Shown here in pieces: positions 3,655 to 18,673 of a stretch of 18,673 bases of DNA (position 1 is the stretch's first letter; each line of letters starts with the position of its first letter). The DNA is from a virus. Lineage: Duplodnaviria; Heunggongvirae; Uroviricota; Caudoviricetes. Location of the stretch: IMG/VR virus record IMGVR_UViG_2617270979_000006; one strand, given 5' to 3'. The position numbers and the translations under genes were made by a program. The notes under the pieces are model-generated. The model was given only the letters and a program-made list of their open reading frames with translations, was not told where the DNA came from and made no database searches.

Positions 3655-3812
3655 TTGATTTTATATTGGCGAGGTGACGTGAGTTAAGTAGAATTGCTGC
3701 GGGTGCTTGAGGCTATCTGCCTCAGGCATGAACACCAAAGGCAGATAGAGAAAAGCCCCAGTTAACATTACGCGTCCTGCAAGACGCTTAACATTAATCT
3801 GAGGCCAATTTC

Positions 3813-4025
3813 ATGCTAGACACATGTAGGTTAGCCTCTTACGTGCCGAAAGGCAAGGAGAAGCAGGCTATGAAGCAGCAAAAGGCGATGTTAATCGCCC
3901 TGATCGTCATCTGTTTAACCGTCATAGTGACGGCACTGGTAACGAGGAAAGACCTCTGCGAGGTACGAATCCGAACCGGCCAGACGGAGGTCGCTGTCTT
4001 CACAGCTTACGAACCTGAGGAGTAA
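3813..4025 (+). CDS. Mok-like leader reading frame, in-frame N-terminal extension of Hok
   Basis: MLDTCRLASYVPKGKEKQA precedes the Hok Met in the same frame, the same arrangement as E. coli MokC/HokC (MLNTCR...) as I recall it. Confidence 0.55.
   Translation: MLDTCRLASYVPKGKEKQAMKQQKAMLIALIVICLTVIVTALVTRKDLCEVRIRTGQTEVAVFTAYEPEE
3870..4025 (+). CDS. hokD: Hok/Gef family type I toxin (HokD/RelF-like, 51 aa)
   Basis: MKQQKAMLIALIVICLTVIVTALVTRKDLCEVRIRTGQTEVAVFTAYEPEE: single transmembrane helix plus conserved Hok C-terminus. AAGGAG lies 9 nt upstream of the ATG. Followed by a hairpin (4033-4054) and a terminator. Confidence 0.9.
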   Translation: MKQQKAMLIALIVICLTVIVTALVTRKDLCEVRIRTGQTEVAVFTAYEPEE

Positions 4026-10906: not shown

Positions 10907-11269
10907 GGTAATATTAAATCGGAACATTTACATCGCGGAATGTAAAATTTAAATAAAAAGGACTCTTCCATGAGCCAAAATTCCTGAAATCTTAAGGGTA
11001 AGATAAAAGGTCTTAATCAGAATGACACGTTATTATTAATAAATAAAGCTATTCTTTCATTGCTGTGTTTTTCTTTACAAAAGTAATCCTTGCTATGGGT
11101 GGTTAATCATGCGTTAATGGTGTTCTGGTTTGTTACAAATTTATCTGAAGCAGTCATTGTTATAATTTTATTATTTGTACCTCTTGAGATTTCCTTGTTG
11201 GTTTTTCTCTCTGATATTTTTTTTCGGACCATTCTGCCCAAGGGCTAATTTCTTCAAAAGGTAATAATT
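10907..11269 (+). promoter_or_regulatory. Long AT-rich leader/promoter region of the csp gene (candidate cold-shock 5' UTR)
   Basis: About 360 nt of ORF-free AT-rich DNA with a perfect TATAAT near 11160 and TTGCTA-N18-TTAATG near 11085-11115. CspA-family genes are known to have long structured 5' UTRs. The transcription start is not determinable by eye. Confidence 0.4.
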
Positions 11270-11482
11270 ATGTCTAACAAAATGACTGGTTTAGTGAAAT
11301 AGTTTAACCCTGAAAAAGGTTTTGGTTTCATCACGCCGAAAGATGGCAGCAAAGATGTGTTTGTCCATTTCTCAGCAATTCAGAGCAACGATTTCAAAAC
11401 ATTAACTGAGAATCAGGAAGTTGAATTTGGTATTGAGAACGGACCTAAAGGTCCTGCCGCTGTTCATGTAGTGGCGCTTTGA
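11270..11482 (+). pseudogene. cspI: CspA-family cold-shock protein gene (CspI-like) interrupted by an in-frame amber codon at codon 11
   Basis: Reads [72 protein letters not shown]-stop. The TAG at 11300-11302 replaces the invariant Trp (TGG) of the WFN motif. No downstream in-frame Met, so no full-length product without suppression. Confidence 0.8.
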
Positions 11483-11681
11483 GGTAGACAATATTACAAA
11501 CCATATTCACTTTAGATGCCCGTGTTGTCATGGTTCCCAGTATAGAACATCATCTTTTGATGTTTCTGACATGAATCCTTTCGGGGCAAAATGTATCTTT
11601 TGTAAATCAATGATGATTACATTTGATAATATTTCACAATACTTAAATGCCAGCCGTCTGTCGTTGGATTTAAAAAAGTGA
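11472..11681 (+). pseudogene. Zinc-ribbon small ORF (YdfK/YnaE-like, by recollection) lacking a start codon for its conserved N-terminal part
   Basis: Open frame ...FRCPCCHGSQYRTSSFDVSDMNPFGAKCIFCKSMMITFDNISQYLNASRLSLDLKK with two Cys pairs (CPCC, CIFC). No ATG/GTG/TTG between the upstream stop (11469-11471) and the internal ATG at 11571. Confidence 0.35.
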
Positions 11682-13930: not shown

Positions 13931-15556
13931 ATGGGTTTTTCATCAGCCCGAAATTTGGGAAGGGACATATCGGCAGGATTTTCCCCACCACGTCGCATGC
14001 CGATTTCGGAGGCTGTTAAAAAATTCATGCGTGTTCCCAAGGGGGCTGGTAACTCGGTGCCATGGGATCCTGAACTGACACCCTACATCATTGAGCCCAT
14101 GAACTGCCTGGCATCGCGTGAATACGATGCGGTGATTTTTGTTGGTCCTGCGCGAACAGGGAAGACCATTGGTCTGATCGATGGATGGATTGTCTATACC
14201 ATCGTTTGCGATCCTTCGGACATGCTCGTTGTGCAGATGACCGAAGATAAGGCCCGCGAGCATTCTAAAAAGCGCCTCGACAGAACGTTCAGAAGCAGTG
14301 CGGCGGTAAAGAAAAGAATGAGTCCACGTCGTAACGACAATAATGTCCATGATAAGACGTTCAGGGATGGCTCGTTCCTTAAAATTGGTTGGCCCTCGGT
14401 CAACATTATGTCGTCGTCGGATTACCGGTTTGTCGCCTTAACCGATTACGACCGTTTTCCGGAGAATATCGACAGCGAGGGTGATGGTTTCTCCCTGGCC
14501 TCAAAACGTACCACCACATTTATGTCCGCCGCGATGACTCTGGTGGAGAGCTCGCCGGGACGTGACATCTGCGACAGCAAATGGCGACGTAAGTCGCCTC
14601 ATGAAGCGCCACCGACGACTGGTATTCTTTCCCTTTACAATCGTGGTGACCGCCGCCGCTGGTACTGGCCATGTCCGCACTGCGGTGAATATTTTCAGCC
14701 AGCTATGGATGCCATGACCGGCTACCGTAATGAACCGGATCCCTTTAAAGCCAGTGAGGCGGCGTATCTACTTTGCCCACACTGCAGCGGCATTATCACT
14801 GCGGAGAAAAAGCGTGAGCTCAATAGTGCAGGAGTCTGGTTGCGTGAAGGTCAGGTCATTGATCGTAACGGCAACGTTTCCGGTGAACCGCGCCGCTCCC
14901 GTAATGGCAGCAAGGATAAGGAACGCGAGCTTACCATTCAGCCAGGCATTATTTACGATGATCTGAAACCCGGCGAAGAAATCGGAATGGTGAAGTCGGA
15001 TCGCCCAAATCCTAACCTTGAAACTTTTCGTAATGGTCAGTTGCGTGCCGTGGCGGCGGGCAGTCGTCTGAGTTTTTCCAGTACAGCGCGCAACTATAAC
15101 GGCACTTACAGCGCCCAGCGTCAGGAGCTGGTTGAATCCACTGATGGCTACCTGATCCTGCAGGACTGGTTTATTGGTGCCGTCACCCGTCCGATGTATC
15201 GTGCCTGGCTGAAACAGGCTGTGGCATCCGGTGTTATCAGGCTACCCCGCGATCTTGACCTTTCTTCACTGTATACCGCGGTGTATTCCGGACCGGTGAT
15301 GCCGTGGATTGACCCTGTTAAGGAGGCTGAGGCCTGGAAAATCCAGATTCGTGGTGGAGCGGCGACAGAATCAGACTGGGTACGTGCTGGTGGTCGTAAT
15401 CCGGATGATGTCAAACGTCGGCGCAAGGCCGAAATTGATGAAAACCGCAAGCTGGATCTGGTATTTGATACCGATCCGGCCAGTGATAAAGGAGGCAGCA
15501 GTGCCGCAACGAAACGACAGGAGCCGCAGCACACCGACGACCAGTCCGAAGAATAA
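13931..15556 (+). CDS. Terminase large subunit GpA-family ATPase domain, with a C-terminal portion that looks portal-like (possible in-frame terL::portal fusion)
   Basis: Walker A VIFVGPARTGKT; GpA-type zinc-finger region WYWPCPHCGEYF...LLCPHCSGI, collinear with lambda gpA N-terminal half as recalled. C-terminal about 200 aa (SFSSTARNYNGTYSAQ...PWIDPVKEAEAWKI...) lacks nuclease motifs and resembles lambda-type portal C-termini. RBS GGAGG. Confidence 0.7.
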   Translation: MGFSSARNLGRDISAGFSPPRRMPISEAVKKFMRVPKGAGNSVPWDPELTPYIIEPMNCLASREYDAVIFVGPARTGKTIGLIDGWIVYTIVCDPSDMLVVQMTEDKAREHSKKRLDRTFRSSAAVKKRMSPRRNDNNVHDKTFRDGSFLKIGWPSVNIMSSSDYRFVALTDYDRFPENIDSEGDGFSLASKRTTTFMSAAMTLVESSPGRDICDSKWRRKSPHEAPPTTGILSLYNRGDRRRWYWPCPHCGEYFQPAMDAMTGYRNEPDPFKASEAAYLLCPHCSGIITAEKKRELNSAGVWLREGQVIDRNGNVSGEPRRSRNGSKDKERELTIQPGIIYDDLKPGEEIGMVKSDRPNPNLETFRNGQLRAVAAGSRLSFSSTARNYNGTYSAQRQELVESTDGYLILQDWFIGAVTRPMYRAWLKQAVASGVIRLPRDLDLSSLYTAVYSGPVMPWIDPVKEAEAWKIQIRGGAATESDWVRAGGRNPDDVKRRRKAEIDENRKLDLVFDTDPASDKGGSSAATKRQEPQHTDDQSEE

Positions 15557-15569
15557 TTCCTGGTTCAGG

Positions 15570-15665
15570 ATGCAGGCTGGTCACCAGAGTGACGCGGATA
15601 TTTATATTTATGACGAGATTGGTTTCTGGGGTGTTACAGCGAAGCAGTTTAGGGTAAATTCGTAA
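15570..15665 (+). pseudogene. N-terminal stub of a phage head maturation (prohead) protease
   Basis: MQAGHQSDADIYIYDEIGFWGVTAKQFRVNS-stop. The IYIYDEIGFWG...TAKQF pattern is the characteristic N-terminus of ClpP/S49-like prohead proteases; the frame terminates after 31 codons. Confidence 0.4.
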
Positions 15666-15737
15666 TGATTACCTAAATACGTTATTCTTTTGTTCAAAAA
15701 GTGATTTTGCTATAGGTAGGGAGTATGTTCTTGGATT

Positions 15738-15772
15738 AAGAATAAAAATCGCCATGAAAGAGCTTCATGGCG
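15738..15772 (-). terminator. Candidate intrinsic terminator on the minus strand within the AT-rich region
   Basis: Perfect 9-bp stem cgccatgaa / ttcatggcg with a 5-nt loop; on the minus strand it is followed by ATTTTTATT. Confidence 0.45.
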
Positions 15773-16476
15773 AGTACATAAACGTACAAAATATGATGAA
15801 AGTAGAGTGGCGTAAGCCACTATATTAAGATATGACAATAGCGAAGAAAAGTAAATAACATTTTATGGGCGTTTAATTGTTAATTATAAAAACTAGAGTG
15901 CCCGATATTGTTTATCTTGCTTTAAAATAATGTACTCAAACCAAATTTTTGAGCTAAAAGCTCAAATAATATAAATGCAATGATAATGTTTAATAAGACA
16001 ATTAGCTTGCTTTGTATTTTCATTTCGGAATACTGTTAAGTAACTTTGATGACACTAACAATAGATCGGAATTTTCTTAGAGTCAATGGTCACTGTTTTT
16101 GCTTGCAAAGCAAATGTTTTTGGTGGTTATAAGTTTTCTTAATATAGTCACCTATGCAACTTGTTCCGTGTGGAGATTAAAGGTTAAAATTTAATGCGAA
16201 GATGGAATTATAATATATTTTTTTATAATTAATTTAACCTTAACATCGTTGCTGGCGGCATGGAAGAAATATCGGGTCTTGCTGATGTCGTGTTGGCACT
16301 TCCTTAGTGCGGTTATCGAATGGCCAGCTGTACCTGTGGGGTAAAAACTTTATATGGGTGCTATTTTTATAATAGCTGGTAAAAACTGGCCGAACTGAAA
16401 TTCACTGTTGATAAAAAAGATGTGTTTGAGTGTATGTCATTGTTTTCTTAATGGAATCCACTAGAATGCAGCGAAT

Positions 16477-16674
16477 TTAAGAAGGTGGGTTTTTATTGGA
16501 ATATAAACTACAATAATGCTCAACTCGTTCGTAGAATTGTTTTTTCTTATTTTTTGGAATGCTAACCATTATATGCATTATGGGGGCGATACTTCCTGAT
16601 AATTTACATGATGCATACATTGAAGCAATAAATTCAATATCATTGTCATCAAAGTTAAAGCTTTCTCCGTCCAT
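16477..16674 (-). CDS. Candidate small protein (65 aa) inside the AT-rich ORF-poor region
   Basis: MDGESFNFDDNDIEFIASMYASCKLSGSIAPIMHIMVSIPKNKKKQFYERVEHYCSLYSNKNPPS, with AAGGAA 5-6 nt upstream of the ATG. No recognisable family; AT-rich DNA produces ORFs by chance. Confidence 0.3.
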   Translation of the reverse strand: MDGESFNFDDNDIEFIASMYASCKLSGSIAPIMHIMVSIPKNKKKQFYERVEHYCSLYSNKNPPS

Positions 16675-17389
16675 TTCAATTCCTTATGTGTTTGGCACAA
16701 CTGATGCTGTATCCCATGAGAATTTATGCAAGTTGTTATGTTTGATTTGATATTGCAATGATAATTGTAGCTAATTGTTTTCAATTGAGTGAAAGTTTAT
16801 TTCGAGTGATTAAGTCGAAAAAAAAGATTTCTCACGGTTAGTAAGCGTATTAGGTTAGTATTCAGATATGAATGGTATTAATGACTAAATTTTCAATCAT
16901 ATATGGATTTTTATGCTGATGAAGATGTTTTATTTGGCGATTCGTCAAGCATCTTCACTTAAGTAATCGTATATTTTAAGAGTGCAAAAGAGAAAGGGAC
17001 AACGTTGCTCGCACTCTGGATTAAATATAGGGTGTTGTTAAACTGCGTTGATACATAATTGTACCGGATATTGAGTGGTCTGAAGTCCCAGTCATTAAGT
17101 AATCGTTTCGTGATATGCCGCAGAAACGTTGTATGCAATAACGTTCTGCGGTTGGCTGATGCACTTTCGAGAGTGTATTGAATAATTTCAAGCCGTTATT
17201 GTTTTTACGCGTAACACCATGAAAAGACTGCTTATCTGTTGGGTATTTTTTGGGGCATATATGGGACAGAAATAGGCCACAGATAGATAGTAAGATCGAA
17301 CTCAGGATGCTTTTGAAAAAATGTAACTATCTGAAAAAACCTAGAAAGCGCCAAGGAAACCACAGAATGAGAAAAAACATCTGTGAATT

Positions 17390-18673
17390 ATGGATTTCCA
17401 GTTATATTCGCTCGGCGCAGCGTTAGTGTTTCATGAAATATTTTTTCCTGAATCATCAACGGCAATGGCGTTAATTTTGGCAATGGGAACCTACGGTGCA
17501 GGTTATGTGGCGCGTATTGTCGGAGCATTTATTTTCGGCAAAATGGGCGACAGAATAGGGCGTAAAAAAGTGCTCTTTATTACCATCACCATGATGGGGA
17601 TCTGTACCACCTTAATTGGTGTGTTACCGACCTATGCACAGATTGGTGTTTTTGCCCCCATCTTGCTGGTGACGCTGCGTATTATTCAGGGGTTGGGTGC
17701 AGGTGCGGAAATTTCCGGTGCCGGTACGATGCTGGCGGAATATGCACCAAAAGGTAAGCGCGGAATTATCTCCTCATTTGTAGCTATGGGAACTAACTGC
17801 GGAACCTTGAGCGCAACGGCAATCTGGGCCTTTATGTTCTTCATTCTCAGTAAAGAGGAACTGCTGGCGTGGGGATGGCGTATACCGTTCCTGGCGAGCG
17901 TTGTCGTGATGGTCTTTGCTATCTGGTTACGTATGAATCTGAAAGAAAGCCCGGTCTTTGAGAAGGTTAATGACAGCAACCAACCCACAGCAAAACCTGC
18001 ACCTGCTGGTAGCATGTTCCAGAGCAAATCCTTCTGGCTGGCAACAGGGCTGCGTTTTGGTCAGGCGGGTAACTCCGGGTTAATTCAGACTTTCCTTGCA
18101 GGCTATTTAGTGCAGACGTTATTGTTTAACAAAGCAATTCCAACAGATGCATTGATGATTAGTTCGATTCTCGGCTTTATGACCATTCCGTTCCTTGGTT
18201 GGTTATCCGATAAAATTGGTCGCCGGATCCCGTATATTATTATGAATACCTCCGCGATTGTGCTGGCATGGCCAATGCTTTCTATCATTGTAGATAAAAG
18301 CTATGCCCCGAGCACCATTATGGTTGCACTGATTGTGATTCATAACTGTGCGGTGCTGGGATTATTTGCTCTGGAAAACATTACCATGGCAGAAATGTTC
18401 GGCTGTAAAAACCGCTTTACCCGGATGGCTATTTCTAAAGAAATTGGTGGTCTTATCGCTTCCGGTTTTGGTCCTATCCTGGCGGGTATTTTCTGCACCA
18501 TGACGGAATCCTGGTATCCGATCGCCATTATGATCATGGCATATTCAGTAATTGGTTTAATCTCTGCGCTGAAAATGCCAGAGGTGAAAGACCGTGATTT
18601 AAGTGCGCTGGAAGACGCTGCGGAAGATCAACCGCGTGTTGTAAGAGCTGCGCAACCTTCCAGAAGTCTGTAA
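17390..18673 (+). CDS. ydfJ: MFS metabolite:H+ symporter-family transporter YdfJ, N-terminally truncated at the prophage junction (427 aa)
   Basis: Typical MFS motifs (GKMGDRIGRKK, GWLSDKIGRRIPY). The ORF begins in the middle of what should be TM1 (aligns to the W-x-DF-x-LYG motif region of ShiA/KgtP-type symporters) and is bounded by an in-frame TGA at 17384-17386. Length matches E. coli K-12 YdfJ as recalled. Confidence 0.85.
   Translation: MDFQLYSLGAALVFHEIFFPESSTAMALILAMGTYGAGYVARIVGAFIFGKMGDRIGRKKVLFITITMMGICTTLIGVLPTYAQIGVFAPILLVTLRIIQGLGAGAEISGAGTMLAEYAPKGKRGIISSFVAMGTNCGTLSATAIWAFMFFILSKEELLAWGWRIPFLASVVVMVFAIWLRMNLKESPVFEKVNDSNQPTAKPAPAGSMFQSKSFWLATGLRFGQAGNSGLIQTFLAGYLVQTLLFNKAIPTDALMISSILGFMTIPFLGWLSDKIGRRIPYIIMNTSAIVLAWPMLSIIVDKSYAPSTIMVALIVIHNCAVLGLFALENITMAEMFGCKNRFTRMAISKEIGGLIASGFGPILAGIFCTMTESWYPIAIMIMAYSVIGLISALKMPEVKDRDLSALEDAAEDQPRVVRAAQPSRSL

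Follow-up and report, generated by a model that had tools for sequence, protein, structure and literature searches.

A candidate YncL-like cassette among fossil tail-fibre-assembly gene ends at the ydfJ end of a Qin-like prophage

The IMG/VR virus record IMGVR_UViG_2617270979_000006 (Duplodnaviria; Heunggongvirae; Uroviricota; Caudoviricetes) comprises 18,673 nts, called the window throughout, and the present analysis concerns its positions 15,666 to 17,389, in which a short minus-strand cassette carries a 33-codon open reading frame (ORF) resembling the small membrane protein YncL of Escherichia coli. The initial annotation had described the segment as about 1.7 kb of AT-rich, ORF-poor DNA with several hairpins, lying between a protease stub and ydfJ, and these points hold. 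Its G+C content is 33.4% (0.30-0.36 in sliding windows), compared with 0.50-0.55 for the phage genes on its left side and 0.45-0.50 for ydfJ, and its longest ORFs have 65 codons (ATG start, 16477-16674, minus strand) and 68 codons (TTG start). Hairpins are located at 15806-15822, 15948-15966 and 17118-17152, the last with about -21 kcal/mol. Other E. coli contain the stretch 14901-15651 with 100% identity, as a portal gene end followed by the N-terminal part of a ClpP-like prohead protease, and relatives annotate the 427-aa ORF on the right as YdfJ, with its N-terminus missing. Partial matches to the 1.7 kb fall into classes with sharp borders, and the segments so delimited differ in distribution. 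Read from left to right, they would represent the stop-codon end of the current tail-fibre-assembly gene (tfa), a mobile post-tfa cassette, an older tfa fossil, an orphan filler, a still older lambda-type tfa fossil with a hairpin, and the arm and core of a phage attachment (att) site.

The post-tfa module, referred to as module A, was delimited by homology at 15658-16236 (586 bp counted from 15651; no strand assigned); it is mobile and always follows a tfa stop codon. The temperate phages ev099, mEp332 and PhiR70_1 share it after their tfa stop with 92-96% identity, it is found in 45 IMG/VR loci with sharp limits at 15650-16236, and a further group of E. coli prophages has it as well, with an AraC-type regulator located further on. 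The central 356 bp of module A (15735-16090) form the cassette, which is present in 816 of the 5426 complete E. coli genomes, in at most four places per genome, and nothing is annotated under it among the 30 matches listed. Of its E. coli copies, 22 have 80-95% identity. The temperate phages that carry it are complete-genome deposits for which the listed host is E. coli K-12 or E. coli C. The cassette would be read leftward, from a promoter-like site (16086-16058) through the 33-codon ORF (16023-15922) to an intrinsic terminator (15773-15739).

The terminator, the proposed 3′ end of the yncL-like transcript, occupies 15739-15773 on the minus strand and consists of a stem-loop (15749-15773) and a U-tract (15748-15739), the stem-loop being followed by UUUUUAUUCUU. 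Its stem counts 11 pairs in a consensus scan and 10 in RNAfold, with a folding energy of -15.2 kcal/mol (z = -4.7) that none of 200 shuffles equalled; the minus-strand terminator reported earlier, with a 9-bp stem at 15738-15772, was thus essentially right. The stem is unchanged across six BLAST-ascertained relatives, and the copy of strain HB37 has one change in the loop and one just 3′ of the stem. In the window, a single-base deletion at 15743 has removed one A of the A-run at the terminator, which shortens the U-tract from 6 to 5 nts. A small 6-bp hairpin (15806-15822, minus strand) lies in the proposed 3′ untranslated region (UTR); folded together with the terminator in 15735-15830, it gives z = -6.1. 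The whole predicted cassette transcript, of about 310 nts, folds better than shuffles (z = -3.4), mostly through these 3′ hairpins. A possible case of the terminator travelling alone with a tfa end, suggested by locus L038, was rejected: L038 12558-13090 represents an insertion of IS1 at 15777.

Upstream of the ORF, a sigma-70-like promoter candidate (16058-16086, minus strand) is formed by TTGACT and TATTGT with a spacer of 17 nts; it matches the consensus at 9 of 12 positions and predicts a start near 16051. It aligns with the region upstream of K-12 yncL. Variation was followed in 31 unique module A copies, a set retrieved with the terminator as the search pattern, so that terminator conservation is uninformative in it; the promoter-like site contains one variable site among these sequences. 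Two inverted repeats involve the cassette. One, of 25 nts with 80% complementarity (15806-15830 and 16137-16161), brackets the ORF and the promoter-like site and could mark the ends of a small inserted unit, a target duplication being not evident. The other is a perfect repeat of 14 nts between the predicted 5′ UTR (16041-16054) and codons 6-10 of the 65-codon ORF (16644-16657); at least 14 nts are reached in 0.7% of shuffles, and most alleles have 13 nts, which are reached in 6.7%.

The 33-codon ORF itself, MKIQSKLIVLLNIIIAFILFELLAQKFGLSTLF, occupies 15922-16023 on the minus strand and is unannotated; in a set of about 15 billion predicted proteins, gene callers reported it three times, in no case with a name. 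Its candidacy as a YncL-like small membrane protein comes from homology and conservation. An NCBIfam scan gave a single match, to the YncL model NF000537 (‘stress response membrane protein’), with E = 1.3e-5 over model positions 1-28 of 30. In a gap-free BLASTP alignment with K-12 YncL, as read from the genome, 11 of 28 residues (39%) are identical and 18 of 28 (64%) are positives (E = 2e-7). The local alignment score against YncL is 60, compared with 20.3 ± 4.1 and a maximum of 45 for 20,000 composition-preserving shuffles of the ORF, and because it exceeds all of them, the match is not explained by composition. The two DNA sequences align in frame and without gaps over codons 1-28, and the surroundings of the promoter hexamers are somewhat similar as well. 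By eye, residues L7-L23 form a hydrophobic stretch, which gives the ORF the YncL-type layout of a polar and basic N-terminus followed by one hydrophobic helix.

YncL is a 31-aa membrane protein of E. coli, induced in minimal medium, in stationary phase and by heat shock, and its production leads to sublethal membrane depolarisation, nucleoid condensation and a phage-shock response (PMC12542507). It was also identified as a substrate of RseP in vivo (PMC10470546). The phage-borne ORF has a similar length (33 aa against 31 aa for YncL, b4598), and the N-termini of both read M-x-x-x-S-[KR], after which come a single hydrophobic helix with VL[IL]N, LF and a C-terminal [KR]FG. Both are located in a short monocistronic unit, predicted in the phage case, with promoter-like hexamers at comparable positions. 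They differ in the C-terminal tail (LSTLF versus WFI in YncL) and in context, since the phage ORF is part of a module after tfa, whereas K-12 yncL lies in the chromosomal patD-ortT spacer. Their terminators are also unlike.

Among the 31 module A copies, the ORF and its predicted 5′ UTR (15916-16052) contain 2 variable sites, compared with 17 in the 142 nts to the left and 40 in the 217 nts to the right. The HB37 copy, 95% identical, differs from the ORF at five positions, of which four are synonymous and one gives A24D; the ratio of nonsynonymous to synonymous changes per site (pN/pS) is 0.06. Two other alleles add a synonymous change at I14 and the substitution I18V. The tally is therefore 5 synonymous to 2 nonsynonymous changes, where 80% nonsynonymous would be expected (binomial P = 0.0045), and the reading frame is intact in 51 of 51 copies examined. 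This pattern is that of a coding gene and indicates that the 33-codon ORF is under purifying selection. In the HB37 locus (L263 1417-3357), which holds the most diverged copy of the module, the latter adjoins ykgJ-ecpE-like sequence and the iron/manganese transporter genes sitD/sitC, which gives it other cargo as neighbours.

Several observations weigh against reading the cassette as a YncL-type gene. The ORF scores 25 bits on NF000537, short of the curated cut-off of 35, and for this reason it is regarded as a YncL-like relative and not as an equivalog. Intermediate relatives were not found: a search of 1.84 billion representatives gave only the ORF itself and one 93% variant, and a scan of viral contigs with a back-translated pattern gave the same loci only, so that the family link rests on one match to a hidden Markov model and one pairwise match. 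The selection test counts seven substitutions in all. A Shine-Dalgarno sequence is absent before the ORF (UUCCGAAAUG), whereas K-12 yncL has AAGGUGG. Finally, promoter matches of 9 out of 12 are not enriched in the region, 4 being found where shuffles predict 8.1. With these points considered, the ORF is best described as a candidate single-pass small membrane protein related to YncL, and we infer that its unit would be transcribed and translated, and that the product would act on the membrane.

The missing Shine-Dalgarno sequence also bears on a different view of the cassette, in which a regulatory, Hfq-dependent small RNA (sRNA) is made leftward and ends at 15749-15773, the ORF being untranslated or the RNA having a dual role. 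The predicted transcript is short and has a terminator hairpin with a U-tract, and a perfect 14-nt complement of its 5′ UTR exists at 16644-16657. There are precedents as well: the Salmonella yncL orthologue lies in a sigma-S-dependent transcript that was first catalogued as the sRNA STnc1110 (PMC5437024), and prophages of enteropathogenic E. coli encode minus-strand sRNAs between late genes, such as PasB between tail genes (PMC8550237). However, an sRNA would account neither for substitutions biased to synonymous positions nor for a protein-level similarity to YncL far above composition. The U-tract is only 5-6 nts long, and known sRNA families were not detected in the segment by Rfam, a permissive scan returning only sub-threshold matches to IS009 and a meaningless MicC tail. 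An sRNA is hence unlikely to be the main product.

The likeness to the Hfq-dependent prophage sRNAs of the PasB type (PMC8550237; bioRxiv 10.64898/2026.05.13.724894) consists in a short minus-strand unit with a terminator among lambdoid late genes and in the presence of Rfam IS009 matches in the neighbourhood. PasB differs in being located between tail genes I and J, and the unit described here has a conserved coding frame. An identity with PasB itself was rejected on the grounds of this location and of the absence of its probe sequence from the window.

The hydrophobic nature of the small peptide, together with the membrane depolarisation caused by YncL overproduction (PMC12542507), would also suit a type I toxin, silenced by an antitoxin RNA that is antisense to it or encoded nearby, on the pattern of hok/sok, ibs/sib and tisB/istR. 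An antisense RNA could arise from a plus-strand promoter-like site at 15832-15861, and the 14-nt complement to the 5′ UTR is located 600 bp away. The antisense promoter-like site is nevertheless poorly conserved, with five variable positions inside it, while the 14-nt partner stands in a segment that is missing from most copies of the cassette. Moreover, scans of Pfam, PHROGs, NCBIfam and PADLOC gave no match to a type I toxin family, and YncL is not known as a toxin-antitoxin component. A toxin-antitoxin pair is accordingly judged extremely improbable, and the cassette is treated below as a candidate YncL-like protein gene.

To the right of module A, the segment contains remains of tfa genes. 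The first is a fossil 3′ end on the plus strand (16243-16344) whose translation (..LLAAWKKYRVLL..IEWPAVPVG*) is that of a Tfa C-terminus and which has 75-78% identity to the 3′ ends of intact tfa genes. The second (16985-17102, plus strand) is lambda-type and frameshifted (..LLALWIKYRVLLNCVDT* / ..PDIEWSEVPVIK*); it aligns with the end of lambda tfa, and its matches in phages carry the annotation ‘tail fibre assembly protein’. The best direct repeat of the region links the two fossils (the 16243-16344 region and 16999-17037). Two matches to Rfam IS009 (RF02111), of 40.8 and 32 bits and thus below the gathering score of 117 bits, correspond to these fossils, because the 3′ half of the IS009 model is Tfa C-terminal coding sequence. 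Between the fossils lies an orphan AT-rich insert (16345-16984, no strand assigned), defined by its distribution: it is confined to E. coli prophages at ydfJ, and a comparison with 50,697 phage records at blastn sensitivity gave no match. The ‘decayed cargo’ that had been suspected here thus takes a specific form, two fossil tfa 3′ ends that enclose an orphan insert. The patchwork may have been built by repeated recombination, in which one tail-fibre module after another, together with the DNA downstream of it, entered through the conserved tfa 3′ end and left the older end as a scar.

The second fossil abuts a conserved element of about 96 nts (17118-17211, no strand assigned), made of the hairpin 17118-17152 and some 60 nts and homologous to the ykgJ-ecpE spacer of K-12. 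Copies of this family show 74-93% identity to K-12 304,224-304,319 over up to 96 nts. A pattern scan located the element in more than 100 lambdoid loci, after tfa, a Pin-type invertase or other genes, and it adjoins at least four kinds of integration module. Copies for an analysis of covariation were collected through the right half of the element, which left the hairpin unconstrained, and they were folded one by one, as RNAalifold under-called the stem (bulge register). Despite a widely varying stem, the hairpin forms in 28 of 30 variants; as many as four standard pair types, counting G-U, occur at several stem positions, which amounts to covariation, and the loop CGTATGCAAGAAC is nearly constant. 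On the left, most copies are flanked by A-rich DNA, read as a U-tract on the minus strand. In the window this flank is missing because the tfa fossil abuts the element, and the hairpin has no U-tract.

The same hairpin lies 20 nts past the lambda tfa stop, and in a phage with a lambda-type integrase the element is found immediately to the left of lambda's own sib/tI hairpin. As both stand side by side in that phage, the hairpin is an element separate from sib/tI. A sib/tI element would be a strong hairpin with a U-tract on the int strand, placed in the P arm at 150-280 nts from the core. A sib/tI reading of the 17118 hairpin was rejected for the window on these two grounds and on its homology to ykgJ-ecpE; in addition, the P arm of the window (17205-17300, minus strand) gives z = +0.7, unlike lambda's element (z = -5.9). 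In the phage HannyBb, the hairpin stands about 290 nts past the int stop, is followed by U5 on the int strand and shows a compensatory change from A-T to C-G, and a tI-like role is conceivable there.

Prophages, those in ydfJ among them, were described to contain a 96-bp attachment sequence, termed attB-in-PP_2, with about 81% identity to ykgJ/ecpE, at which other lambda-like phages integrate into the resident prophage (PMC8112680, Nakamura et al. 2021). Most likely, 17118-17211 is a copy of attB-in-PP_2: both have a ykgJ-ecpE homology of about 96 nts and a location at the right end of lambdoid prophages, including those in ydfJ, and in both cases the copies differ considerably from one another. 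Two points count against this assignment. The match was made by described properties and not base by base, since the published sequence stands only in figures, and the window copy is among the more divergent ones, with 79.5% identity to K-12 over 83 nts. The window copy further differs in abutting a tfa fossil, in having no A-rich left flank and in having no phage integrated. From its likeness to attB-in-PP_2, the element would be usable as a secondary att site.

The distribution of the element outside the window offers two further observations. Lambda has a full second copy in its b region (L014 3163-3260, equivalent to lambda 24,162-24,260), followed by sequence resembling the tRNA-type att remnants of other loci, and its copy after tfa is partial; this suggests that the two copies are nested fossils of older phage ends. 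In some phages (K-12 2184-2495 in locus L173 compared with L070 and similar loci), the ykgJ-ecpE homology runs beyond 96 nts, towards an 82-aa ORF and an integrase. Instead of being the source of the phage sequence, the chromosomal ‘attB’ region may be a scar left by a prophage.

The rightmost part of the segment is a phage attachment site, as the initial annotation had considered possible for its arm. The stretch 17118-17398 is collinear with the attP regions of HannyBb, Tritos and mEp460_ev081 and with Qin of K-12. Within it, 17212-17383 is the P arm of attR (no strand assigned), specific to ydfJ-integrating phages and about 86% identical to, and collinear with, phage attP; it shows no significant structure of its own. 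The homology to HannyBb attP ends at 17398. The core, or crossover region, TGAATTATGGATTTC (17384-17398, no strand assigned), was defined by a three-way alignment in which TGAATT(T)ATGGATTTC is the sole stretch common to attR of the window, attP of HannyBb and attL of strain PT62. The PT62 attL is located between rspB and the integrase gene and supplies the missing N-terminus of YdfJ (MTIEKHERSTKDLVKAAVSGWLGTALEFMDF..), so that the ATG at 17390 is an internal Met codon (..EFMDF..) of YdfJ within the core, across which the ydfJ frame continues. The repeat TGGGGCA occurs in both the P and P′ arms, and one might guess that it marks integrase arm sites. The exact consensus for the integration host factor (IHF) is absent from the P arm, in which arm-type repeats are weak.

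Prophages in ydfJ were reported to have an att sequence of 18-19 bp and to form clusters at this locus (PMC8112680). In strain FXCREC035 (NZ_CM135826.1 3,239,865-3,242,787), an integrase gene directly follows the 1.7 kb, which points to prophages arranged in tandem at ydfJ, with an attP-like junction between them. The closest known counterpart of the site is Qin of K-12 (PPydfJ), which interrupts ydfJ at the same place and is 86% identical to the segment over the last 258 nts before ydfJ. Because only these 258 nts are shared, neither the cassette nor either tfa fossil is present in K-12, and half of the hairpin is missing. Instead, K-12 presumably has ydfK and pinQ between tfaQ and ydfJ. The likeness to Qin extends to shared neighbours, namely a cspI-type thermoregulator, hok/sok and rzpQ. 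In the window, an Rfam scan at gathering thresholds gave only the sok antitoxin RNA (3701-3875, 119.9 bits) and a cspA-type thermoregulator (11124-11509, 107.9 bits), which fits a Qin-like element, and relatives of this remnant carry cspI, ynfN, gnsB and rzpQ as well as an integrase beside rspB.

Within the orphan insert, the minus-strand ORF of 65 codons (16477-16674) was put forward by the initial annotation as a small protein, and in PT62 it is annotated by PGAP as the hypothetical protein WP_000348576.1. It begins with ATG, and the ribosome-binding site noted for it is acceptable (AAGGA, 6 nts before the ATG). A promoter-like site exists at 16793-16764, the ORF is annotated in hundreds of genomes, and its N-terminal 40 residues are mostly intact among variants. 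However, 1000 dinucleotide shuffles of the segment have a longest ATG ORF of 64.6 aa on average, and as 42% of them reach at least 65 codons (P = 0.42), the length is no evidence for a gene. Protein matches form 13 clusters, all from E. coli and with at least 88% identity, distant relatives were not found among them, and nothing credible was returned by Pfam, PHROGs, NCBIfam or PADLOC. In many variants, a frameshift after the KNKKK (poly-A) run has shortened or lengthened the predicted product. In 15 unique copies, the ORF has 6 variable sites in 198 nts, the same density as its flanks, and in the comparison with the most diverged copy, 7 of 9 changes are nonsynonymous (pN/pS 0.74), which is no sign of purifying selection. 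The 65-codon ORF is thus probably not a functional gene, and a real small-protein gene at this position is highly improbable. The expectation of a small protein was right in kind, in that an unlisted 33-codon YncL homologue lies upstream of the terminator, but it was attached to an ORF without signs of a gene. In locus L011 (draft genome GCA_038712125.1), the region of this ORF contains a tandem duplication of about 200 bp, roughly at 16411-16585 of the window.

Such duplications, the IS1 insertions of the region and the heavy deletion of the prophage would all fit a 1.7 kb of neutrally decaying debris, in which the conservation of the 33-codon ORF merely reflects recent spread, and the low overall divergence among copies makes constraint hard to measure. 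Yet intact phages also possess the att core, the P arm and the hairpin element, which show covariation; complete-genome phage deposits carry the cassette, and the 33-codon ORF is a local minimum of variation, the changes in it being mostly synonymous. Debris throughout is therefore considered very unlikely. The 1.7 kb are probably the non-essential right end of a defective Qin-like lambdoid prophage in ydfJ, equivalent in place to the b region of lambda, a nested patchwork of tfa recombination that includes a YncL-like cassette, and the cassette appears to be the only unit in it that behaves like a live gene.

Morons are extra, independently transcribed units composed of a promoter, a gene and a terminator, and the lambda b region is non-essential DNA between the tail-fibre genes and attP. 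The cassette would have the form of a phage moron and could be expressed from the prophage. It occupies the same place, after tfa and before att, has a factor-independent terminator of its own (a stem of 10-11 bp and U5-6) and a promoter-like site, and is lower in G+C than the neighbouring phage genes (about 30% against about 50%). Its presence is variable, as the cassette follows tfa in ev099, mEp332 and PhiR70_1 and is absent after lambda tfa. As with ea47-ea59 in the lambda b region, it is oriented against the late operon, and the terminator would keep the leftward transcript out of the tail genes. It differs from typical morons in that the cargo is a 33-codon ORF and not a gene of normal size, and the rest of the segment consists mostly of fossil tfa ends and filler.

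A broader and more speculative proposal is that temperate lambdoid phages carry a dedicated YncL-type gene after their tail-fibre genes, expressed from the prophage and tuning the membrane potential of the host, with a short mRNA that might also act as a regulatory RNA; this is possible, although doubtful at present. If true, lysogens could gain stress tolerance, a low metabolism or phage exclusion, and in about 15% of sequenced E. coli the YncL family would have a second (or third or fourth) member that is unannotated. YncL-type proteins were only recently linked to membrane depolarisation and metabolic silencing, and a phage-borne copy would provide a natural gain-of-function system for studying the role of the family and its exploitation by phages. 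The novelty would thus lie in an unannotated, conserved, phage-borne relative of YncL; the rest appears to be ordinary prophage architecture, and most of the segment can serve as a textbook example of accretion and decay at a lambdoid prophage end. In addition, the analysis corrects two annotations, that of the 65-aa ‘hypothetical protein’ and that of the ydfJ start codon, which is the internal Met in the att core.

The left boundary of the segment was overlooked in the initial annotation. Alignments of the window with PT62, 13C1079T and phage ev099 become identical from 15651 onward, 7 nts before a tfa stop, and 15651-15657 (plus strand) are the last 7 nts of tfa, with the TAA stop at 15655-15657. 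As the identity to relatives starts at 15651, the protease stub must have been fused to the end of tfa by a deletion (junction 15650/15651), by which, on these alignments, the body of tfa is lost from the window. A second deletion has fused the N-terminus of terminase to the C-terminus of a portal protein, and the exact deletion junctions of the window were found neither in complete RefSeq E. coli genomes nor in species-representative genomes. In the genomes examined, PT62 and 13C1079T, the 1.7 kb sit between tfa and a truncated ydfJ. Whether the segment recurs in other prophages had been raised as a question, and parts of it are indeed shared with E. coli prophages and temperate phages: 578 of the 5426 complete E. 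coli genomes hold at least 80% of the 1.7 kb, and hundreds contain the whole segment with at least 99% identity.

Several minor changes concern the region and its surroundings. The window has a single-base deletion at 17240, where a G is present in 14 of 14 other unique copies. In several genomes IS1 has inserted into this AT-rich DNA, in one case directly after the terminator (window position 15777). Further left, the 541-aa ‘terminase’ ORF (13931-15556) is a chimera created by an internal deletion near 14900, with matches to the ATPase domain of the terminase GpA (residues 40-303) and to the C-terminus of a lambda-family portal protein (residues 317-411).

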